From a virus (lineage: Duplodnaviria > Heunggongvirae > Uroviricota > Caudoviricetes), in the IMG/VR virus record IMGVR_UViG_2778261533_000004, positions 1-12,175 of that record: a DNA stretch of 12,175 nt; one strand, 5' to 3'. This document shows positions 1-12,175 of the stretch, in pieces (position 1 is the stretch's first letter; each line of letters begins with the position of its first letter). A program made the position numbers and the translations under genes. The notes under the pieces were generated by a model. The model had not been told where the DNA came from, did no database searches, and was given only the letters and a program-made list of their open reading frames with translations.

Positions 1-201
1 ACGATGATCTGGCAGCCTGAGTTCACAGATAAAACACTCTCTTGGAAACCCGGGGCGGTTCAGTTGCTCGATAAAGTCACGCCCTCACAGTGGGCGGCAA
101 TAGGTGTGCTGGGTAGTCTGGTGTTTGGCCTGCTGACGTATCTGACAAACCTTTATTTCAAGATTAAAGAAGATAAGCGCAAGGCTGCGAGAGGTGAATA
201 A
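1..201 (+). CDS. Class II holin (pinholin), phage 21 S-like; probably 5'-truncated by the window edge
   Basis: ORF ends ...[30 protein letters not shown], matching the S21/EssD pinholin C-terminus as I recall it (one TM segment plus charged tail). Codon 1-3 is in frame with the ATG at 4, so the true start may lie upstream of the window. Stop overlaps the next ATG (TAATG at 199-203). Confidence 0.8.
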
Positions 202-698
202 TGCCTCCATCATTACGAAAAGCCGTTGCTGCTGCTATTGGTGGCGGGGCTATTGCCATAGCATCTGTGTTAATCACTGGCCCAAGTGGTAACGATGGTC
301 TGGAAGGTGTCAGCTACGTACCATACAAAGATATCGTTGGCGTATGGACTGTATGTCACGGACACACCGGAAAAGACATCATGCTCGGTAAAACGTATAC
401 CAAAGCAGAATGCAAAGCACTCTTGAATAAAGACCTTGCCACTGTCGCCAGACAAATTAACCCGTACATCAAAGTCGATATACCGGAAACAACGCGCGGC
501 GCTCTTTACTCATTCGTTTACAACGTGGGTGCTGGCAATTTCAGAACATCGACGCTTCTTCGCAAAATAAACCAGGGCGATATCAAAGGCGCATGTGATC
601 AGCTACGTCGCTGGACATATGCTGGCGGTAAGCAATGGAAAGGTCTCATGACTCGTCGTGAGATTGAGCGTGAAATCTGTTTGTGGGGTCAGCAATGA
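201..698 (+). CDS. R: SAR endolysin (phage 21 R-type lysozyme, T4-lysozyme-like muramidase)
   Basis: 165-aa ORF with an N-terminal Gly/Ala-rich signal-anchor-release segment ([20 protein letters not shown]) followed by a lysozyme-like domain ([18 protein letters not shown]...). Sits immediately after the pinholin with start/stop overlap, the canonical pinholin plus SAR-endolysin pairing. Confidence 0.92.
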
Positions 699-1156
699 AC
701 AGAGTAACCGCGATTATCTCCGCTCTGGTTATCTGCATCATCGTCTGCCTGTCATGGGCTGTTAATCATTACCGTGATAACGCCATTACCTACAAAGCCC
801 AGCGCGACAAAAATGCCAGAGAACTGAAGCTGGCGAACGCGGCAATTACTGACATGCAGATGCGTCAGCGTGATGTTGCTGCGCTCGATGCAAAATACAC
901 GAAGGAGTTAGCTGATGCTAAAGCTGAAAATGATGCTCTGCGTGATGATGTTGCCGCTGGTCGTCGTCGGTTGCACATCAAAGCAGTCTGTCAGTCAGTG
1001 CGTGAAGCCACCACCGCCTCCGGCGTGGATAATGCAGCCTCCCCCCGACTGGCAGACACCGCTGAACGGGATTATTTCACCCTCAGAGAGAGGCTGATCA
1101 CTATGCAAAAACAACTGGAAGGAACCCAGAAGTATATTAATGAGCAGTGCAGATAG
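695..1156 (+). CDS. Rz: Rz inner-membrane spanin (i-spanin)
   Basis: Protein [29 protein letters not shown]... with an N-terminal TM segment and coiled-coil periplasmic region, essentially as I recall lambda Rz. Start taken at ATG 695 (overlaps the endolysin stop in ATGA) rather than the tool's upstream ATG at 683. Confidence 0.92.
915..1097 (+). CDS. Rz1: Rz1 outer-membrane lipoprotein spanin (o-spanin), embedded in the +1 frame of Rz
   Basis: 60-aa [27 protein letters not shown]... with signal peptide, lipobox (VVGC) and a proline-rich mature region, wholly inside Rz in another frame; the classic embedded Rz/Rz1 architecture. Confidence 0.88.
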
Positions 1157-1180
1157 AGTTGCCCATATCGATGGGCAACT
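1157..1180. terminator. Perfect palindromic hairpin between convergent Rz and bor; candidate bidirectional terminator
   Basis: agttgcccat-atcg-atgggcaact: 10-bp perfect inverted repeat with a 4-nt loop, exactly between the Rz stop (1156) and the bor stop (1188). Confidence 0.55.
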
Positions 1181-1187
1181 CATGCAA

Positions 1188-1481
1188 TTATTGTGAGCAA
1201 TACACACGCGCTTCCAGCGGAGTATAAATGCCTAAAGTAATAAAACCGAGCAATCCATTTACGAATGTTTGCTGGGTTTCTGTTTTAACAACATTTTCTG
1301 CGCCGCCACAAATTTTGGCTGCATCGACAGTTTTCTTCTGCCCAATTCCAGAAACGAAGAAATGATGGGTGATGGTTTCCTTTGGTGCTACTGCTGCCGG
1401 TTTGTTTTGAACAGTAAACGTCTGTTGAGCACATCCTGTAATAAGCAGGGCCAGCGCAGTAGCGAGTAGCATTTTTTTCAT
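1188..1481 (-). CDS. bor: Bor lipoprotein (lambda Bor family, serum-resistance-associated outer-membrane lipoprotein)
   Basis: 97-aa ORF MKKMLLATALALLITGCAQQTFTVQNKP... with signal peptide and lipobox (ITGC), matching lambda Bor as I recall it. Opposite strand just downstream of Rz, as in lambda. Confidence 0.92.
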   Translation of the reverse strand: MKKMLLATALALLITGCAQQTFTVQNKPAAVAPKETITHHFFVSGIGQKKTVDAAKICGGAENVVKTETQQTFVNGLLGFITLGIYTPLEARVYCSQ

Positions 1482-1771
1482 GGTGTTATTCCCGATGCTT
1501 TTTGAAGTTCGCAGAATCGTATGTGTAGAAAATTAAACAAACCCTAAACAATGAGTTGAAATTTCATATTGTTAATATTTATTAATGTATGTCAGGTGCG
1601 ATGAATCGTCATTGTATTCCCGGATTAACTATGTCCACAGCCCTGACGGGGAACTTCTCTGCGGGAGTGTCCGGGAATAATTAAAAACGATGCACACAGG
1701 GTTTAGCGCGTACACGTATTGCATTATGCCAACGCCCCGGTGCTGACACGGAAGAAACCGGACGTTATGAT

Positions 1772-2182
1772 TTAGCGTGGAAAGATTTGTGTAGTGTTCT
1801 GAATGCTCTCAGTAAATAGTAATGAATTATCAAAGGTATAGTAATATCTTTTATGTTCATGGATATTTGTAACCCATCGGAAAACTCCTGCTTTAGCAAG
1901 ATTTTCCCTGTATTGCTGAAATGTGATTTCTCTTGATTTCAACCTATCATAGGACGTTTCTATAAGATGCGTGTTTCTTGAGAATTTAACATTTACAACC
2001 TTTTTAAGTCCTTTTATTAACACGGTGTTATCGTTTTCTAACACGATGTGAATATTATCTGTGGCTAGATAGTAAATATAATGTGAGACGTTGTGACGTT
2101 TTAGTTCAGAATAAAACAATTCACAGTTTAAATCTTTTCGCACTTGATCGAATATTTCTTTAAAAATGGCAACCTGAGCCAT
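1772..2182 (-). CDS. ybcV: YbcV/YdfO-like DUF1398 family protein (lambdoid right-end accessory ORF)
   Basis: [34 protein letters not shown]... I chose the internal ATG at 2182 (136 aa) because it has a good SD (GGAAGG about 9 nt upstream); the tool's longer ORF to 2305 starts at a GTG with no obvious RBS. Recognised from memory as the prophage YbcV/YdfO family. Confidence 0.75.
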
Positions 2183-2467
2183 TGGTAAAACCTTCCATGT
2201 GATACGAGGGCGCGTAGTTTGCATTATCGTTTTTATCGTTTCAATCTGGTCTGACCTCTTTGTGTTTTGTTGATGATTTATGTCAAATATTAGGAATGTT
2301 TTCACTTAATAGTATTGGTTGCGTAACAAAGTGCGGTCCTGCTGGCATTCTGGAGGGAAATACAACCGACAGATGTATGTAAGGCCAACGTGCTCAAATC
2401 TTCATACAGAAAGATTTGAAGTAATATTTTAACCGCTAGATGAAGAGCAAGCGCATGGAGCGACAAA

Positions 2468-2674
2468 ATGAATAAAGAACAATCTGCTGATGATCCCTCC
2501 GTGGATCTGATTCGTGTAAAAAATATGCTTAATAGCACCATTTCTATGAGTTACCCTGATGTTGTAATTGCATGTATAGAACATAAGGTGTCTCTGGAAG
2601 CATTCAGAGCAATTGAGGCAGCGTTGGTGAAGCACGATAATAATATGAAGGATTATTCCCTGGTGGTTGACTGA
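2468..2674 (+). CDS. ybcW: YbcW-like small protein (68 aa), function unknown
   Basis: 68-aa [36 protein letters not shown]..., GGAG about 8 nt upstream of the ATG. Position and length match the DLP12-type ybcW that follows ybcV; divergent from the ybcV-like gene. Confidence 0.7.
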
Positions 2675-2838
2675 TCACCATAACTGCTAATCATTCAAAC
2701 TATTTAGCCTGTGACAGAGCCAACACGCAGTCTGTCACTGTCAGGAAAGTGGTAAAACTGCAACTCAATTACTGCAATGCCCTCGTAATTAAGTGAATTT
2801 ACAATATCGTCCTGTTCGGAGGGAAGAACGCGGGATGT

Positions 2839-3033
2839 TCATTCTTCATCACTTTTAATTGATGTATATGCTCTCTTTTCTGACGTTAGTCTCCGACGGC
2901 AGGCTTCAATGACCCAGGCTGAGAAATTCCCGGACCCTTTTTGCTCAAGAGCGATGTTAATTTGTTCAATCATTTGGTTAGGAAAGCGGATGTTGCGGGT
3001 TGTTGTTCTGCGGGTTCTGTTCTTCGTTGACAT
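2839..3033 (-). CDS. ylcI: YlcI-like DUF3950 family small protein (64 aa), function unknown
   Basis: 64-aa basic ORF MSTKNRTRRTTTRNIRFPNQMIEQINIALEQKGSGNFSAWVIEACRRRL..., located next to the cos-proximal right end as in lambda/DLP12-type prophages. Confidence 0.7.
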   Translation of the reverse strand: MSTKNRTRRTTTRNIRFPNQMIEQINIALEQKGSGNFSAWVIEACRRRLTSEKRAYTSIKSDEE

Positions 3034-3039
3034 GAGGTT

Positions 3040-3231
3040 GCCCCGTATTCAGTGTCGCTGATTTGTATTGTCTGAAGTTGTTTTTACGTTAAGTTGATGC
3101 AGATCAATTAATACGATACCTGCGTCATAATTGATTATTTGACGTGGTTTGATGGCGTAGATGCACGTTGTGACATGTAGATGATAATTATTATCATTTT
3201 GCGGGTCCTTTCCGGCGATCCGACAGGTTAC
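3040..3231. other. Lambda right-end (cos-proximal) non-coding sequence ending at or near the cosN cut position; left breakpoint of a large internal prophage deletion
   Basis: Sequence ...gcgggtcctttccggcgatccgacaggttac resembles the extreme right end of lambda DNA as I recall it (...ACGGGTCCTTTCCGGTGATCCGACAGGTTACG, followed in lambda by the cohesive end GGGCGGCGACCT). Here the cohesive-end and left-arm sequences are absent and lom codons follow directly. Confidence 0.6.
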
Positions 3232-3577
3232 CCGCTGGCATGAAGATTCCGTTCGTAACCGCTGGTTCAGCGTAATGGCGGGGCCGTCTGTGCGCGTGAA
3301 TGAATGGTTCAGCGCGTATGCGATGGCGGGTGTAGCTTACAGCCGTGTGTCGACTTTCTCCGGGGATTATCTTCGCGTAACTGACAACAAGGGGAAAAAG
3401 CACGATGTGCTGACCGGAAGTGATGACGGTCGCCACAGCAACACGTCTCTGGCGTGGGGGGCTGGCGTGCAGTTTAACCCGACCGAATCCGTGGCCATTG
3501 ATATTGCTTATGAAGGCTCCGGCAGTGGTGACTGGCGCACTGACGGTTTCATCGTGGGTGTCGGTTATAAATTCTGA
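3230..3577 (+). pseudogene. lom: lom remnant: C-terminal ~115 codons of a Lom/Ail-family outer-membrane protein, lacking N-terminus and signal peptide
   Basis: In-frame translation from about 3230 reads TRWHEDSVRNRWFSVMAGPSVRVNEWFSAYAMAGVAYSRV...GFIVGVGYKF, the C-terminal part of lambda Lom including the terminal aromatic beta-barrel signature. The tool's ATG at 3275 is an internal Met. No upstream signal peptide or start exists because of the junction with the cos-proximal sequence. Confidence 0.85.
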
Positions 3578-3603
3578 TTAGCCAGGTAACACAGTGTTAT
3601 GAC

Positions 3604-3630
3604 AGCCCGCCGGTTCAGGCGGGCTTTTTT
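3604..3630 (+). terminator. Rho-independent terminator after the lom remnant, immediately upstream of stf
   Basis: agcccgcc-ggttca-ggcgggct followed by tttttt: 8-bp GC-rich stem, 6-nt loop and T-run. Confidence 0.7.
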
Positions 3631-3641
3631 GTGGGGTGAAT

Positions 3642-6600
3642 ATGGCAGTAAAGATTTCAGGTGTACTGAAAGACGGCACAGGAAAACCGGTACAGAACTG
3701 CACAATCCAGCTGAAAGCAAAACGTAACAGCACCACGGTGGTGGTGAACACGCTGGCCTCAGAAAATCCGGATGAAGCCGGGCGTTACAGCATGGACGTT
3801 GAGTACGGGCAGTACAGCGTTATTCTGTTGGTGGAGGGATTCCCGCCGTCACATGCCGGGACCATTACCGTGTATGAAGATTCTCAACCCGGTACGCTGA
3901 ATGATTTTCTCGGTGCCATGACGGAGGATGATGCCCGTCCGGAGGCATTGCGACGTTTTGAACTGATGGTGGAAGAGGTGGCGCGTAACGCGTCCGCAGT
4001 GGCACAGAACACGGCAGCCGCGAAGAAGTCAGCCAGTGATGCCAGCACATCTGCCAGTGAGGCGGCAACTCATGCAACCGATGCTGCAGGCTCAGCACGC
4101 GCAGCCAGCACGTCAGCCGGACAGGCCGCGTCGTCGGCTCAGTCAGCATCTTCCAGCGCAGGAACGGCATCAACAAAGGCCAGTGAAGCATCGAAAAGTG
4201 CTGCTGCTGCAGAGTCCTCAAAAAGCGCGGCAGCTACCAGTGCCGCTGCGGCGAAAACGTCAGAAACGAATGCGGCAGCGTCACAACAATCAGCAGCCAC
4301 TTCTGCATCCGCCGCGACCACGAAGGCGTCAGAAGCAGCCACCTCAGCCCGGGATGCGGCGGCCTCAAAAGAGGCAGCGAAATCATCAGAAACGAACGCA
4401 TCATCAAGCGCCAGTAGTGCCGCTTCCTCGGCAACGGCGGCAGGCAATTCCGCGAAGGCGGCAAAGACGTCTGAGACAAACGCCAGGTCTTCTGAAACGG
4501 CAGCGGGACAGAGCGCCTCGGCTGCGGCAGGCTCAAAAACAGCGGCTGCGTCGTCTGCCAGTGCCGCGTCAACAAGTGCCGGGCAGGCCTCAGCCAGTGC
4601 CACCGCCGCCGGAAAATCGGCAGAAAGTGCCGCATCGTCTGCTTCAACAGCCACAACGAAGGCTGGCGAAGCCACTGAACAGGCCAGCGCAGCAGCGAGG
4701 TCTGCTTCCGCAGCGAAGACATCCGAGACGAACGCGAAAGCGTCGGAAACCAGCGCAGAATCCTCAAAAACGGCTGCCGCATCGTCCGCCAGTTCGGCGG
4801 CGTCATCGGCATCATCGGCGTCTGCTTCAAAAGATGAGGCGACCAGACAAGCGTCCGCAGCGAAGGGCAGCGCCACGACAGCATCCACGAAGGCGACAGA
4901 GGCAGCTGGCAGTGCGACGGCGGCAGCACAGAGCAAAAGTACGGCGGAATCCGCGGCAACGCGCGCCGAGACAGCGGCAAAACGGGCAGAGGATATTGCA
5001 TCCGCCGTGGCGCTTGAGGATGCAAGTACGACGAAAAAGGGGATAGTACAGCTCAGCAGTGCGACCAACAGTACGTCTGAAACGCTGGCGGCAACGCCAA
5101 AGGCAGTAAAATCAGCCTATGACAATGCAGAGAAACGTCTGCAGAAAGACCAGAACGGCGCTGATATACCCGATAAGGGACGCTTCCTGAACAACATTAA
5201 CGCGGTCAGTAAAACAGACTTTGCTGATAAGCGTGGTATGCGTTATGTGCGGGTTAACGCTCCTGCAGGTGCAACATCTGGAAAATATTACCCTGTTGTT
5301 GTTATGCGTTCTGCTGGCTCAGTAAGCGAACTGGCATCAAGGGTCATTATCACCACGGCAACGCGAACCGCAGGCGATCCGATGAATAACTGCGAGTTTA
5401 ACGGATTTGTTATGCCTGGTGGCTGGACTGACAGGGGGCGTTATGCTTATGGAATGTTCTGGCAATATCAAAACAATGAACGAGCCATCCACTCAATAAT
5501 GATGAGTAATAAGGGCGATGATTTGCGCTCTGTGTTCTATGTTGATGGCGCTGCTTTCCCTGTTTTTGCGTTTATCGAAGATGGCCTGTCAATATCCACA
5601 CCTGGTGCTGATCTCGTTGTTAATGATACGACCTATAAGTTTGGGGCAACAAATCCGGCGACTGAATGTATCGCGGCGGACGTTATCCTTGATTTTAAGA
5701 GTGGGCGTGGTTTTTATGAGTCTCATTCGTTAATCGTTAACGATAACTTGTCGTGCAAAAAACTTTTTGCCACAGACGAAATTGTAGCGCGTGGTGGTAA
5801 TCAGATTCGAATGATAGGTGGGGAGTATGGGGCATTATGGCGTAATGATGGCGCTAAAACTTACCTGCTGCTTACCAATCAAGGTGATGTTTATGGTGGC
5901 TGGAATACATTAAGACCGTTTGCTATTGATAACGCAACCGGCGAACTGGTTATTGGAACCAAACTGTCCGCAAGTCTGAACGGTAATGCATTAACAGCAA
6001 CAAAGCTGCAAACGCCAAGACGGGTTTCTGGTGTTGAGTTTGATGGTTCCAAAGATATTACTTTAACCGCCGCGCATGTGGCTGCTTTTGCCAGAAGGGC
6101 AACGGATACATATGCCGATGCGGATGGTGGCGTTCCCTGGAATGCCGAATCAGGCGCTTATAATGTCACCCGCTCTGGCGACAGCTATATTCTGGTTAAC
6201 TTCTATACCGGAGTCGGAAGTTGCCGGACCTTGCAGATGAAGGCGCATTACAGAAATGGTGGTCTGTTCTACCGTTCTTCAAGAGACGGTTATGGTTTTG
6301 AGGAAGACTGGGCAGAAGTTTATACCTCGAAAAATCTTCCACCAGAAAGCTACCCAGTCGGCGCACCAATCCCGTGGCCATCAGATACCGTTCCGTCTGG
6401 TTATGCCCTGATGCAGGGGCAGACTTTTGACAAATCTGCTTACCCGAAACTTGCAGCCGCTTATCCGTCAGGCGTGATCCCTGATATGCGTGGCTGGACG
6501 ATTAAGGGCAAGCCCGCCAGTGGTCGTGCCGTATTGTCTCAGGAACAGGATGGCATTAAATCGCATACCCACAGCGCCAGCGCATCCAGTACGGATTTGG

Positions 6601-7040
6601 GGACGAAAACCACATCGTCGTTTGATTACGGCACTAAATCCACGAATAACACTGGTGCGCATACCCATAGTTTAAGTGGCAGCACGAATGCAGCTGGTAA
6701 TCACAGCCATAGAGATGGCCGTCGATTTAACCCCAGTGTTTTTAAAGATACTTATCAATATGGTTATACAAGCTCAGGTCAAAATACCTGGGGTGTACAA
6801 GGCTCAGTAGGTATGTCTACGGGGTGGTTAGCTAATACCAGTACAGATGGTAATCATAGCCACTCACTGTCCGGCACAGCAGCATCTGCAGGTGCACACG
6901 CGCATACTGTCGGTATTGGTGCTCATACGCACTCCGTTGCGATTGGTTCACATGGACACACCATCACCGTTAACGCTGCTGGTAACGCGGAAAACACCGT
7001 CAAAAACATCGCATTTAACTATATTGTGAGGCTTGCATAA
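3642..7040 (+). CDS. stf: Side tail fibre protein Stf (long, StfR-like variant, ~1132 aa)
   Basis: N-terminus [37 protein letters not shown]... matches lambda Stf as I recall it; start taken at ATG 3642 (the tool's 3636 is a GTG). Followed by a long Ala/Ser/Thr-rich repetitive shaft, a central domain and a His-rich C-terminal tip (HTHS/HSHS/HAHT repeats, ...[11 protein letters not shown]). Stop overlaps the tfa start (TAATG). Confidence 0.93.
3990..5050 (+). repeat. Low-complexity Ala/Ser/Thr-rich coding repeats in the Stf shaft (reiterated ...AKTSETNA...[10 protein letters not shown]... units)
   Basis: Visible reiteration of GC-rich gcnncngcn codon runs and repeated KTSETNA / SASAA peptide units; this creates long spurious ORFs in other frames and on the opposite strand. 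Confidence 0.7.
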
Positions 7041-7624
7041 TGGCATTCAGAATGAGTGAACAACCACGGACCATAAAAATTTATAATCTGCTGGCCGGAA
7101 CTAATGAATTTATTGGTGAAGGTGACGCATATATTCCGCCTCATACAGGTCTGCCAGCAAACAGTACCGATATTGCACCGCCAGATATTCCGGCTGGCTT
7201 TGTGGCTGTTTTCAACAGTGATGAGGCATCGTGGCATCTCGTTGAAGATCATCGGGGAAAAACCGTCTATGACGTGGCTTCCGGCGACGCGTTATTTATT
7301 TCTGAACTTGGCTCGTTACCGGAAAATGTCACCTGGTTATCGCCGGAAGGGGAATATCAGAAGTGGAACGGCACAGCCTGGGTGAAGGATACGGAAGCAG
7401 AAAAACTGTTCCGGATCCGGGAGGCGGAAGAAACAAAAAACAACCTGATGCAGGTAGCCAGTGAGCATATTGCGCCACTTCAGGATGCTGCAGATCTGGA
7501 AATCGCAACGGAGGAAGAAAACTCGTTGCTGGAAGCCTGGAAAAAGTATCGGGTGTTGCTGAACCGTGTTAATACAACAACTGCACCTGATATTGAGTGG
7601 CCTACGAACCCTGTCAGGGAGTAA
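7040..7624 (+). CDS. tfa: Tail fibre assembly protein Tfa (chaperone for Stf)
   Basis: 194-aa [76 protein letters not shown]..., matching lambda Tfa as I recall it; translationally coupled to stf. Confidence 0.93.
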
Positions 7625-7638
7625 TCATTGGGATTATG

Positions 7639-7672
7639 CCGCAGAAACGTTGTATGCAATAACGTTTTGCGG
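7639..7672 (+). other. Stem-loop just downstream of tfa (12-bp stem with one bulge, 9-nt loop), no U-tract; possible terminator or regulatory hairpin
   Basis: ccgcagaaacgtt-gtatgcaat-aacgttttgcgg inverted repeat 15 nt after the tfa stop; followed by ttggctgg rather than a T-run. Confidence 0.35.
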
Positions 7673-7910
7673 TTGGCTGGTGAACTTCCGATAGTGCGGG
7701 TGTTGAATGATTTCCAGCTGCTACCGATTTTACATATTTTTGCCTGAGAGGATTTGAACCGCCTCCACAGACTCTACATCACAGATAACCACTGTCACGA
7801 GGACTGTTAGTGCTGTGAGTTCAACGGGGCGATGTACGCTACCTTTAATCAAGAGGGAGAGGTACGTTGCTAAGATGAGTTTATATTCATCAACTAAGTG
7901 CAGATCAGCG

Positions 7911-7958
7911 AATAACTAAAACTTGGCTGTCTGTGACAGGAACATCGATTGACAGCCA
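7911..7958 (-). terminator. Candidate intrinsic terminator for the large minus-strand gene
   Basis: On the minus strand, 26 nt after the stop at 7984: inverted repeat tggctgtc...gacagcca (8-bp stem, long loop with possible internal pairing) followed by the U-rich run UUUUAGUUAUU. Confidence 0.35.
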
Positions 7959-7983
7959 GTTTCTCCACATTTAGGTGTTTAGA

Positions 7984-10900
7984 TTAATCATCCTCTCCAA
8001 TATTTAGATTGCTGATAACCTGTGCAGCTTCGTGGTCATAGCCAACCGCTAAATCTCTTAAGGTAACGGCGAATCGCTGAAAACCAGCGTTTTCCACTTC
8101 TTCTGCTTTTGCCCGGAACTGGTCAGCTAGCTCTCTCTCAGGTTTTCCTGTTGGATCAACACAATAAACACCTCGTGAGTTGTAGGCTCCTGTCATGTAG
8201 CCCCTGCGCATACTCTCAGCATCTCGATCGTTGAGAGCAGCTGCGACCTCTCGGTTTATCCACAAGCCATTCGGATCGGAGGGAGTATAAATCAAGACTT
8301 CACCAACTTTGCTGAGTGCAACGTCCAGGTGACCTGATGCCGTAGAACCCTCCTTAACTTTCTGAAGCCATTCAGTAAAGCGTTCTCCGTTGAACGTCCC
8401 ATTTGATTGGCTTCCTGGCGGTGTCTTCCAGTTGTACAAAAGAGTCCAGGCATTTTTTGCGATTGCTTTCAATTCATCTGTTGGTTCACTTGTCATATTG
8501 TCTTCTTTGTCAGAACGATAAATGAGTTGGATTACTTCGCAGAAAAATTCTGGATCATTAGCCATTTTATTCTCAAGGAACTTAGGCACAGCATCTTGGT
8601 GACCATCGAGCAATGGAAGGTAAGCCCACTCGATCTGAAAAAGATTATCCGGATTCACTTTGGGATCAGTCTGAAGAAATTGGATAAGGGTAGTTATGTT
8701 GTAACCATCCATGTTGGAGCTAGATTCGTTAGTTGAAGTGGCAGCAAGCAAAGCGCGGATACACTGTTCAGTATCGATTGGCTGCTTTGTCTGATGCATC
8801 CTGCACAGGCAATTGATTGCCGCAAGTGGTCTGCCATGATCAATCAGCTTATCGATGGCACTAGTAAGATCACCTTCACCCAGGTCAGGATTTGCATCGG
8901 TGCGAGCCCAATATTCGTTCTCGGAAGCTTGAGGATAATGAGAGACTCGGGTCCAGGTCTCCTTGTTAAAAGGCAGATAAGCAAAGAATTGGCCTAACTG
9001 TTCAGGAGTCCAGTCAGCTTTATCCAGATTGTCGAACCACTCCCAGCCTTTGAGATAGAAACGCTTCCAAATAAAAGCGCTTACCAATGCCTTATACTTA
9101 TTTTCTTTTGTATTGAGGAAACGGGGCAAAAGAAGTTTTTCGAACACATCATCGTTGATAGTGCCGAGTACACTTCCTATTTGATGGGGCGCAGAAACGT
9201 GATCTGCAAATCGAATAACGCCTTCTGCGCCATCTTGCCTAAGAATTTCTGATATTGCGGATTCGCGCCTTGATTCGAGTTTATTTCTCCGTTCTTCCCA
9301 ATCGCCATTTTCTAAGTAAAGATCAAAATCTCGATTTGAAAAAAGGTGCTGATATAAGTTGAATGGATTGGTAGGTGCCAGTTGCTCGGCAACATTTTCG
9401 ATTTTGGTCAGCAGATCATCTGGTAAAGCCCAATTAGCATTAGAGAATCGCCGATGTTTATTTGCGAATCGATGAAGATGATCCCAAATTACAACTCGCT
9501 GCTCTTCATTAAGACAATTAATTGTTTCCGAAGAGAGGTGCTTAAGAAGATGTTCGAAAGCAGGAGATGGAAGGCTATCAAAATTATCAATCAACAAGGT
9601 AAGGCGTTCGATATCTTCTCCGGCGTTTTTGACGGCAAGCTCAGCATAAAAAGATGTCTGCAACCAGTAATCCTGATTAGTCACTTTGCTTTCCCAATCA
9701 TCTGGGATTATTCGGCGCCAAGAGGGCTTGTGTGACCCAGAAGAGGTTTGATGGTGACCGGGTAGAAGCTGGACGAGTAAATTCCAGGCAATGTCAGGCC
9801 ATTCCTGCAAGATGACGTTGACTGCAACTTTTCGTTTTTCTATAGATGCCAGCGTTTGCGGAAACCACGGTAATAATATAGTAGTAAGCGAGTTAGATGG
9901 TCGATTAGCCCACTTGCCCCCAGGATCGTGGCTGGCAAGTTCGGCCAGTACAACACAGACGCGTACTAGGTATTGCTCATCCCAGGCTAATTCTTCTAGA
10001 GCCCATAGCAGTCCTGTCAGATAATTACCACCAGTGATACCATTTACTTCTTGAGAAAAAAGCTCATCAAATACACAAGGAGTCTGACGCATTGCCTTCT
10101 CAACTGCATCAAGAAATTTTGCAGGAGCTGCTTCAGCCAAAGTTGGTAGCAAACCGTTTAGGCTACCCCATAAAACCCAGTTTGCATCAGTCAAAATTGT
10201 ATGTATTGCGACGTTAACGGAAGTTTCAGCATTCCCCTGAGAGCAGTTAACGCAAACCTCTGGCCGACTCCCGATTATGGCTAAACCCTCTGCTATACCT
10301 TGTCGCAGCGTGGATGAAAACTTCAGCACCTTACCATGAATACTAGCAGCGTAACGCTCTTCAGCAGGTAATTCGAAAGCAGGGTCTGGCTCTTTGAGTA
10401 CGGAAATCGCGGAAGACTTAAACAATTCAAGATTCTGATCAAAAATGCGGGATCCAAGAAGACTCCATAGCTCCATTCGATTTGTTACTTTCCAAATGCC
10501 GTTTTTTAGGGACAAAGGACTGTCTGGGCTATGTAAAATCTCTCGAGCCTTCCTTAGCCATTCGTCATAGCTGATACCAAGCAATTGGGTTAGTACATTT
10601 CGGTCACACTCATTTTTATCATTCCATTGCCCAATCAACACTGCTAAGGCTAAATAAGAGGCATCTGGGTGGTGAGTCCAGTCGGTTTTGACTACCGGTT
10701 GTACTAACCTCAACTTCTCAGGTATTTCAGCAATAACCCTTTGTTTGAAAACATCTAAAAGATCTTCAGGTAGCTTACTTGAAATGATAGTGCCAGCATC
10801 TTTATTCCAAGTTTGTACGATATCAACTATCCGCGACCAAACCCACTGAGGATACTGTTGATGGAATTGCGCTATGTGGGAGTGCAGCAAAGAAAGGACG

Positions 10901-11526
10901 ACGCCTGATTCATTACCCAGATCGTACCCTAGTAAATGGAAATGGTTCAAAAAGTCATAAAGCTCATCGTTTGTTAAATCGTTCCCACTGTTTGCCATCT
11001 TCAGATGAAACTGGATGGCCTCCAGTTTCTCAGTACTTTTAGGCGGGCTGAACTTGGCTTTTTGAACGTTCCTCAAAAATTCATCGACTGTTTTTGTGTG
11101 TCTAGCCTGATTCAATAACCAGAGCACATTGTGTGTATCGGTCGAACTGAGCGGACCGGTGATCAGTGCAATAACATCCTTGTTCTTGGTAAACAAGTCA
11201 GGATTGTTGAAATCGTTCCAAGCAGCCTGTATAACTTCCCCAAGTATCGCATTACCTTGCGTAAATGAAATAGAATGCTTTATTTGTCCTAATAGCTTCC
11301 GTTTTTCATTGCTGTTGAAATCTTTAACAACGACGATCAAGTCGTCGGTATCAAAACCATCAATCTTGCCCTGGAGATTTATCTCCACTATGGGCCAACA
11401 AGGAAGACAAGGTGCATTACCGCCTGTTAGCATTAGAGCAACAAAAGACGCTTGGACATGTGCTTCAAAATGAACACCGCCTCCGCCTGTAGAAAAAGGA
11501 TTACTCAAATTTTTTTTATTTGTCAT
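7984..11526 (-). CDS. Large hypothetical protein (~1180 aa), no family assignable by eye; candidate prophage accessory or defence gene
   Basis: Single uninterrupted minus-strand ORF of about 3.5 kb with coherent codon usage; many short antisense ORFs inside it are frame-shadow artefacts. Start assigned to ATG 11526 (MTNKKNLSNPFSTGGGGVHFE...); the tool's start at 11532 is a TTG two codons upstream. RBS is weak or ambiguous. Appears more AT-rich than the flanking phage genes, by eye only. Confidence 0.8.
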   Translation of the reverse strand: MTNKKNLSNPFSTGGGGVHFEAHVQASFVALMLTGGNAPCLPCWPIVEINLQGKIDGFDTDDLIVVVKDFNSNEKRKLLGQIKHSISFTQGNAILGEVIQAAWNDFNNPDLFTKNKDVIALITGPLSSTDTHNVLWLLNQARHTKTVDEFLRNVQKAKFSPPKSTEKLEAIQFHLKMANSGNDLTNDELYDFLNHFHLLGYDLGNESGVVLSLLHSHIAQFHQQYPQWVWSRIVDIVQTWNKDAGTIISSKLPEDLLDVFKQRVIAEIPEKLRLVQPVVKTDWTHHPDASYLALAVLIGQWNDKNECDRNVLTQLLGISYDEWLRKAREILHSPDSPLSLKNGIWKVTNRMELWSLLGSRIFDQNLELFKSSAISVLKEPDPAFELPAEERYAASIHGKVLKFSSTLRQGIAEGLAIIGSRPEVCVNCSQGNAETSVNVAIHTILTDANWVLWGSLNGLLPTLAEAAPAKFLDAVEKAMRQTPCVFDELFSQEVNGITGGNYLTGLLWALEELAWDEQYLVRVCVVLAELASHDPGGKWANRPSNSLTTILLPWFPQTLASIEKRKVAVNVILQEWPDIAWNLLVQLLPGHHQTSSGSHKPSWRRIIPDDWESKVTNQDYWLQTSFYAELAVKNAGEDIERLTLLIDNFDSLPSPAFEHLLKHLSSETINCLNEEQRVVIWDHLHRFANKHRRFSNANWALPDDLLTKIENVAEQLAPTNPFNLYQHLFSNRDFDLYLENGDWEERRNKLESRRESAISEILRQDGAEGVIRFADHVSAPHQIGSVLGTINDDVFEKLLLPRFLNTKENKYKALVSAFIWKRFYLKGWEWFDNLDKADWTPEQLGQFFAYLPFNKETWTRVSHYPQASENEYWARTDANPDLGEGDLTSAIDKLIDHGRPLAAINCLCRMHQTKQPIDTEQCIRALLAATSTNESSSNMDGYNITTLIQFLQTDPKVNPDNLFQIEWAYLPLLDGHQDAVPKFLENKMANDPEFFCEVIQLIYRSDKEDNMTSEPTDELKAIAKNAWTLLYNWKTPPGSQSNGTFNGERFTEWLQKVKEGSTASGHLDVALSKVGEVLIYTPSDPNGLWINREVAAALNDRDAESMRRGYMTGAYNSRGVYCVDPTGKPERELADQFRAKAEEVENAGFQRFAVTLRDLAVGYDHEAAQVISNLNIGEDD

Positions 11527-11845
11527 TAACAATCACATCCACATTTTGATTACGAATAGATGAAAAAGAAGAGCACTCATACTTCAGAACTTATTCCACC
11601 TATATCTTTTAAAGACACTGTTATGCCTAGCATTTACGTAGATTAGCTAGCTCTCGTAAGCAATGGCTATTGCTAAAATGAATAGTTAGGTTATATCCAG
11701 TATTTTATGCTGGCGCAAGATACCCTTCGGGCCTGACAAATTTTTGTAGGTCTGAGTCACCTCTTTCCGTATGGGAGCAAATTCACAGTGGTTTGAGGAT
11801 GCTAATCTTAAAGTGAGTAACGTCTTCATACTCCAAGGAGAGTAC

Positions 11846-12175
11846 GGTAATGACTCCAACTTACTGATAGTGTTTTATGTTCAGATAATGCCCGATGACC
11901 TTGTCATGCAACTCCACCGATTTTGAGAACGACAGTGACTTCCGTCCCAGCCTTGCCAGATGTTGTCTCAGATTCAGATTATGTCGCTCAATGCGCTGAG
12001 TATAACGCTTGCTGATAACGTGCAGCTTTCCCTTCAGGCGTGATTCATACAGCGGCCAGCCATCCGTCATCCATACCACGACCTCAAAGGCCGACAGCAG
12101 GCTCAGAAGACGCTCCAGTGTGGCCAGAGTGCGTTCACCGAAGACGTGCGCCACAACCGTCCTCCGTATCCTGTC
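11846..12175 (-). mobile_element. IS1 insertion sequence, partial (one terminal inverted repeat plus the 3' part of insB; continues beyond the window)
   Basis: ggtaatgactccaacttactgat at 11846 matches the IS1 terminal inverted repeat as I recall it. The downstream sequence encodes the InsB C-terminus on the minus strand. The other end of the element is outside the window. Confidence 0.9.
11861..12175 (-). CDS. insB: IS1 transposase InsB, C-terminal portion (5' part outside the window)
   Basis: Translation ...[98 protein letters not shown] matches IS1 InsB with several substitutions relative to the IS1A copy I remember. The reading frame is open to the window end; the tool's start at 12154 is an internal GTG. 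Confidence 0.88.

Follow-up and report, generated by a model that had tools for sequence, protein, structure and literature searches.

The sequence analysed here, referred to as the window, is the 12,175 nucleotide stretch at positions 1–12,175 of IMG/VR virus record IMGVR_UViG_2778261533_000004 (Caudoviricetes). It runs from the lysis genes of a lambdoid element through the lambda-type right end and a remnant of lom to the side tail fibre genes and a large cargo gene, and its features are listed in Table 1. The initial annotation had described a defective prophage that keeps only its lysis cassette, bor and the side tail fibre genes. All of these are present, however the lysis cassette is not intact, as the end of an IS3-family insertion sequence replaces the 5' end of the holin gene at 60/61, and the list of what is kept was too short, since the lineage also has int, a methylase and the 1180 aa cargo gene. 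Among the related assemblies described below, holin sequence is found at the position of the IS3-family end in L006, L012 and L015, and the full holin is present in L006, L012 and L157 (71 aa in the latter two).

The side tail fibre gene stf is identical to that of L154 (CP057555.1) except for one mismatch at 5598. The cargo gene is an open reading frame of 1182 aa in which the called start, two codons downstream, gives the 1180 aa gene. It is 99.9–100% conserved beside tail-fibre genes in many E. coli (677 index blocks listed), always in the thrW/pao/ecp region.

Table 1. Features of the window, with coordinates in nucleotides of the window.
Feature	Coordinates	Strand	Basis
IS3-family insertion sequence, 3' end and terminal repeat, abutting holin	1..60		100% match to the ends of annotated IS3-family transposase genes
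Holin (essD-type), lacking approximately the first 25 codons	61..201	+	Maps onto PEC1009 essD
Endolysin R (rrrD-type)	201..698	+	Pfam Phage_lysozyme, E = 8e-46
Spanin Rz; 99.4% lambda identity begins here	695..1156	+	Pfam Phage_lysis, E = 3e-54; lambda alignment
bor	1188..1481	-	Pfam Lambda_Bor
ybcV / lambda p78 (DUF1398)	1772..2305	-	Pfam DUF1398; PEC1009 annotation
ybcW / lambda p79, 68 aa; AGTTACCCT at codons 27–30 (window 2545–2553)	2468..2674	+	Annotation and sequence
ylcI (DUF3950)	2839..3033	-	Pfam DUF3950; annotation
Non-coding lambda right end, to lambda 48501	3034..3231	+	Alignments
TAC microhomology, the deletion junction	3229..3231		Three-way comparison of window with left and right parents; 3232 is lom
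lom remnant, 3' 346 of 600 nt, without signal peptide	3232..3577	+	Pfam Ail_Lom, profile positions 85–199 of 199; intact lom in L154 and L159
stf side tail fibre, 1132 aa, apparently intact	3642..7040	+	Pfam phage_tail_N, Gp34_trimer, Collar
tfa tail fibre assembly, 194 aa	7040..7624	+	Pfam Caudo_TAP
1180 aa cargo gene	7984..11526	-	No match in Pfam, NCBIfam or PADLOC
IS1	from 11846		Right part of the window

Window positions 695–3231 align without gaps to lambda 45966–48501 at 99.4% identity. The lambda-type homology ends at window 3231, which corresponds to lambda 48501, one base before the final base of the lambda genome. The junction reads ...GGCGATCCGACAGGTTAC up to 3231 and then CCGCTGGCATGAAG from 3232, the longer right-hand read being CCGCTGGCATGAAGATTCC. 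In the left parent, represented by PEC1009 (L001), NCTC9040 (L002) and lambda itself, ...GGTTAC is followed by G and GGGCGGCGACCT, then by CGCGGG. In the right parent, represented by the intact lom of L003, L154 and L159, ...CGTTACAGCGATAC is followed by CCGCTGG. The trinucleotide TAC is thus common to the left parent (...GGTTAC/GGGG) and the right parent (...GCGATAC/CCGC), and no further similarity between the two was found beyond it. Because TAC belongs to both parents, the crossover is placed between lambda 48498 and 48501, so that 1–4 nt separate it on the left from the cosN nick in the top strand (48502/1). The initial annotation had proposed that about 3 bp (tac) are shared at the junction, and this is the case. 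It had also taken the right-end homology up to cos, as is found here, although the homology ends at 3231 rather than at 3229.

The 12 nt cohesive end GGGCGGCGACCT is absent from the whole window, even with two mismatches permitted, in agreement with the earlier view that this sequence had been lost. Neither cosB nor anything homologous to lambda 1–190 was found, with lom directly following the right end. Approximately 30 bp upstream of cosN, the sequence GGGTCCT at 3203–3209 aligns with lambda 48473–48479, and this we take to be cosQ. A cosQ-like element is therefore present upstream of the junction, while the cohesive end and cosB that a functional lambda-type cos would have are both missing.

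The junction has neither an IS end nor an att core, and extended homology is also lacking; the nearest IS ends are those at 1–60 and from 11846. The TAC overlap falls within the 1–9 nt of short homology that characterises microhomology-mediated illegitimate junctions; at least 3 nt of microhomology would be found at a random junction with p ~0.05 by our calculation. With a 3 bp overlap and none of these other features, the join is illegitimate, and judging from the sequence it is probably of the RecA-independent type. What has been removed is cosN, cosB and ~19.3 kb extending from nu1 through J and into lom. The proposed deletion of the whole packaging, head and tail region with fusion into lom is therefore upheld, as all packaging, head and tail genes are gone with cosN and cosB, and so is its proposed size of about 19 kb, the distance from cos to the lom site being 19,318 bp in the intact relative VTB97432v (L003). 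As a consequence only 2.5 kb now separates the lysis genes from stf-tfa downstream of them, and the deletion product can no longer be cut or packaged.

The translated lom remnant, TRWHEDSVRNRW..., matches the Pfam Ail_Lom profile with E = 1.4e-70. Relative to L154 the gene is missing 254 of 600 nt (42%), not the 5' two-thirds that had been supposed, and the join is at lom nucleotide 255. The longest open reading frame in the remnant is 100 aa, from an ATG at 3275. The lom of the window, which is neither full-length nor equipped with a signal peptide, is a pseudogene.

The position of the element in the chromosome comes from L006, an IMG/VR contig (IMG 2875713109) with the same junction, which runs left into int-thrW-proA and is 99.1% identical there to VTB97432v. 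Because this junction-bearing contig reaches int-thrW-proA, the element is a decayed lambdoid prophage at proA-thrW, and not at the DLP12 site. Late genes are kept, packaging, head and tail genes are missing and the attachment site is a known one, as is found for defective lambdoid prophages.

The identical junction, with 100% identical flanks, is present in four further assemblies. Each of these has its own private changes: L006 has a 134 bp duplication in Rz, L012 (GCA_963281235.1) a 1,247 bp loss in stf/tfa, L015 (GCA_050474305.1) a deletion from window 5325 into ykgO-eaeH, and L157 (CP035331.1, a complete chromosome of 4.8 Mb) two small duplications. The private change of the window is the IS3-family insertion in the holin gene. 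Since the five assemblies share the junction yet differ by private decay, the junction is a single event inherited clonally and is not a misassembly. This answers the question raised at the outset of clonal inheritance versus a recurrent event. The tandem duplication in Rz of the sister assemblies covers 134 bp (window 935–1069; L006 5934–6202) and is not present in the window; L157 has the duplication in the Rz region and a second small one at the stf/tfa boundary (window-equivalent 6874–7169), both of which the window lacks. Not one of 5,426 complete RefSeq E. coli genomes has the junction, and its exact 22-mer had no match in GTDB species representatives or JGI metagenome contigs and one match in IMG/VR, which is L006. 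The other possibility considered in the initial annotation, that lom lies naturally beside the right end in related phages, is not borne out, this order not being seen in phage records or in the 5,426 complete E. coli genomes.

Two relatives at the same locus, L154 and L159, have J, full lom, stf, tfa and the 1180 aa gene all present, and differ from window 3232–12175 by one mismatch in 8,944 bp. An intact right side like that of the parent therefore exists, and the deletion is recent. The comparison with VTB97432v is different, with ~6% divergence from 3232 to ~4900 (lom to the middle of stf) and a single mismatch from ~4900 to 12175. A recombination boundary is thus marked inside stf, between loci that are otherwise near-identical. 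The divergence of 3232–4900 was considered as an imported tract, a reading that was rejected in light of L154 and L159, which show the tract to be native to the locus. At the same locus, L162 (15231–16799) and L163 (16544–18112) each have a single open reading frame of 522 aa with Nu1, tail protein L and tail-fibre domains, which would be the scar of an in-frame double deletion.

Approximately 140 lambda-type right ends from IMG/VR, annotated genomes and contigs found through YlcI, Rz and the 1180 aa protein were compared base by base. All of these other right ends keep cosN, and there is no second independent cos-nick junction among them. In L136 (909–920) a variant cohesive end, GGGCGGAAGGCG, is found in place of GGGCGGCGACCT between a lambda-type right end and cosB. 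Searches for patterns in which the right end is not followed by G gave 15 matches in IMG/VR and, L006 aside, these were unrelated genes in which the 15-mer occurs by chance. The apparent breaks in L081, L085 and L142 were likewise in unrelated genes. Of 4,638 E. coli records, 3,460 cover 80% or more of a 300 bp probe centred on the nick. No truncation at the nick was found in a spread sample of 60 rows from these 4,638 records, in which partial matches end at mosaic boundaries at -57 to -30, +45 and +95.

Deletional decay of such prophages is abundant at thrW and its sister loci, where ~30 distinct alleles were surveyed, many of them with overlaps of 1–6 bp. In lambda coordinates their left ends are at +234, +261, +310, +347, ~+410, +425/427, +551, +583/586, ~+690–720 (several), +880, +960 and +1018 (the DLP12 of K-12), with others farther away at +1540, +1758, +2179, +2270, +2529, +2905, +3145 and +3469. 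Approximately 20 of the left ends are crowded between +234 and +1018, in nu1. A further two alleles begin left of cos, that of L008 at the start of Rz and that of L013 within a ybcW homologue. None of the ~30 alleles has a left end in the interval from the nick to +230, and deletions that begin right of cos never cut cosN-cosB. The allele in the window is the only one surveyed that destroys cosN while the whole right end stays. The apparent sparing of cosN-cosB could be due to selection to keep cos, for example for mobilisation by a helper phage, to protection by bound proteins, or to a sampling bias towards short contigs.

Breakpoints within lom also coincide between alleles. The lom breaks of L008 (~5913–5916) and L009 (~5914–5916), both of them remnants in the lambda attachment locus, are no more than 1 bp apart (CTAT/GCAGG, at lom nt ~213), with the start of Rz joined to lom in L008 and nu1 joined to lom in L009. 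Together with a second pair, formed by the window and L013, this suggests that there are preferred breakpoints in lom. Two coincident pairs have p ~0.05–0.1 once it is allowed for that a single 100 aa open reading frame led to all of them, which provides a sampling window of ~100 bp. No hairpin or Chi site accounting for the coincident breakpoints was found. A hairpin hotspot in lom was rejected because the DNA folds no better than shuffled sequences (z = -0.19), as was protection of an end guided by Chi, since neither strand of the window contains a Chi site.

It is almost certain that the scar is an illegitimate deletion in a decaying lambdoid prophage at proA-thrW, inherited clonally. The initial annotation had gone further, in proposing that a terminase-cut end was joined by microhomology within lom. 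The join through TAC stands. The terminase origin of the left DNA end is plausible at slightly less than an even chance, with the break 1–4 nt off the nick, the overhang gone and no recurrence weighing against it. In one route the cos of the prophage would be cut in situ by a lambda-type terminase, either that of the prophage itself or one co-resident with it, with end joining following. In another, a mature genome would have lost its left arm, its natural right end would supply the DNA end, and it would be circularised by end joining and then integrated by Int. The left arm is the one held by terminase, packaged first and injected last. By either route, the recessed 3' end ...GGTTACG would lose its last base and the 12 nt 5' overhang, the trimmed end would use TAC to pair with an end resected to within lom, and sealing would be by the native end joining of E. 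coli (RecBCD and LigA).

In favour of a terminase-made end, a break within the four ambiguous positions at the nick has p ~2e-4 if ends are uniform over ~22 kb, and ~3e-3 once the way other deletion ends crowd around cos is taken into account, and the loss of cosN with the whole right end kept is confined to this allele among the ~30 surveyed. After cleavage in lambda and Dlp12 the end left of cos, which is the one kept in the window, is exposed and recombinogenic, with the other side protected by terminase (PMC3945230), and 10 of the 19 recombinant junctions from lambda x Dlp12 crosses adjoin cos (De Paepe et al. 2014, PMC3945230). Double-strand breaks in the E. coli chromosome undergo RecA-independent, RecBCD-dependent end joining at ~3e-5, with 1–3 nt of microhomology at every one of the junctions and deletions of up to 83 kb (bioRxiv 10.1101/605246). 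Against a terminase-made end, the join is off the nick, with G48502 and the whole 12 nt overhang missing, and no other independent cos-nick junction was found in the ~140 right ends or in the 60-row sample of the 4,638 records. In addition, the free right end, which RecBCD attacks, is nearly intact, whereas the side protected by terminase has lost 19 kb, and a cell expressing terminase is normally heading for lysis. That the scar records a cohesive end joined illegitimately, either because an in situ cos cut was survived or because a right-end-first genome without its left arm was circularised and integrated, is put forward tentatively, as a reading that is possible and somewhat less than probable.

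The same scar could have been left by an ordinary spontaneous deletion, through replication slippage or repair of a random break, with its left end coming to lie beside the nick by chance and without terminase. The abundance of prophage decay at thrW and its sister loci fits with this, as do the left ends that crowd near cos in any case, a TAC overlap only weakly above expectation and the lack of recurrence of the cos-nick junction. Chance would nevertheless have had to hit four positions beside the nick, at the low probabilities given above, in a region from -200 to +230 of the nick where no other allele breaks. A deletion of this kind is considered a fairly unlikely explanation. A more specific alternative comes from L013, at the Qin locus (ydfJ), in which codon 30 of the ybcW homologue is joined to lom at the breakpoint of the window (L013 5952–5960). 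L013 reads ...ATGGGTTACCCG and then CTGG of lom, the window reads ...CAGGTTACCCG and then CTGG, and the 9 bp GGTTACCCG is common to the two junctions (window 3226–3234). A truncated lom allele that already existed would then have determined the site through microhomology, with the L013 and window junctions derived one from the other by gene conversion or homology-facilitated illegitimate recombination, with lom-stf homology on the right and the 6 bp GGTTAC or the 9 bp GGTTACCCG on the left. This is also the chief reservation about a terminase-made end, as with the same lom break and GGTTACCCG across the junction, 6–9 bp of microhomology could have picked the site. Four GGTTAC sites lie between Rz and the lom break in an intact relative. 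Were the Qin allele the older of the two, the site proximal to cos would be just another of the four, and no cut would be needed. The lom remnant and intergenic sequence of L013 (409 bp) are identical to the window, and on its left side the parent is a ybcW homologue in which GGTTACCCG occurs naturally (L017 5383–5401); at the same codons the ybcW of the window has AGTTACCCT. However, the two junctions are in different prophages (thrW versus ydfJ), so that an inter-locus event or imported DNA would be needed, and no imported tract is visible, the right flank of the window belonging to the thrW locus itself and differing from L154 by 1 mismatch over 8.9 kb. The identity in lom is also weak evidence of descent, because the same lom allele, with 0–1 differences, occurs in unrelated prophages such as L008 (1 difference). 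The L013-type junction is absent from the 5,426 E. coli genomes and IMG/VR. Derivation of one junction from the other is judged to be quite unlikely.

The number of steps is a question orthogonal to the origin of the end. At least two nested steps, in which an earlier deletion joined nu1 to lom and a later one removed 0.6–0.8 kb from cosN into the lom remnant, have a modest chance of being correct, well short of even. Alleles with cos, a truncated nu1 and a lom remnant do exist, in PEC1009 (joined at ATACCG), L009 and AR_0369. The lom remnant of the window, at 346 nt, is shorter than the 438–531 nt of these alleles, and relative to PEC1009 the window has 787 bp of extra deletion. However, derivation from a PEC1009-like allele is not favoured, its lom-stf being only 95.6% identical to the window versus 99.99% for L154, and the closest known relatives, L154 and L159, are essentially identical to the window and still have full lom and J. 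A single 19 kb step therefore seems somewhat more likely than nested steps on these comparisons. An assembly or chimera artefact at the end of linear phage DNA is so improbable as to be negligible. Linear cos ends can produce coverage breaks, but assemblers do not join contigs via a 3 bp overlap and the junction is identical in five assemblies that differ elsewhere, including the 4.8 Mb complete chromosome CP035331.1 and a 4.7 Mb contig.

The window is a new allele of a well-known event, the deletional decay of a lambdoid prophage. The closest likeness is to DLP12 of E. coli K-12 (essD-rrrD-rzpD-bor-ybcV-ybcW-ylcI-cos-nohD), to which the late module is 98–99.8% identical over window 61–3231. 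The kind of decay is the same, with head and tail genes lost and lysis genes, bor and tail-fibre pieces kept. DLP12-type alleles differ in that they still have cosN and cosB together with some or all of nu1, with the K-12 break at +1018 and the others from +234 to +3469, while the window ends 1 nt before the nick, without cos, and is at the proA-thrW locus. The right end of lambda is matched at the identity given above, including the GGGTCCT at 48473–48479. In contrast to the cos of lambda, only the leftmost bases of cosN remain in the window, and with the 12-mer and cosB gone this is not a functional cos.

The join resembles the alternative end joining (A-EJ) by which E. coli repairs double-strand breaks in its chromosome, as seen in Cas9-induced deletions, in having 1–3 nt of microhomology, no long homology and a deletion of tens of kb that is in the reported range (10.1101/605246). 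It differs in that the loss in the window is extremely asymmetric, at 1–4 nt and the overhang versus 19.3 kb. In the lambda x Dlp12 crosses (PMC3945230), the end left of cos that is exposed is also the end that is kept in the window. Those crosses were homologous exchanges in lytic growth, however, whereas the illegitimate join in the window became fixed in a chromosome that survived.

This deletion, being a single clonal event, leaves the understanding of lambdoid prophages unchanged. In practical terms, the element is beyond cutting and packaging, with lom dead and stf-tfa apparently intact. Descriptions of prophage decay are usually statistical, and the lesion behind a given prophage deletion can seldom be named. 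A junction 1 base from the nick comes close to the natural footprint of a phage-made end that has been repaired by host end joining. If the proposal of a terminase-made end is true, the ends that terminase makes would seed prophage decay and create defective lysogens.
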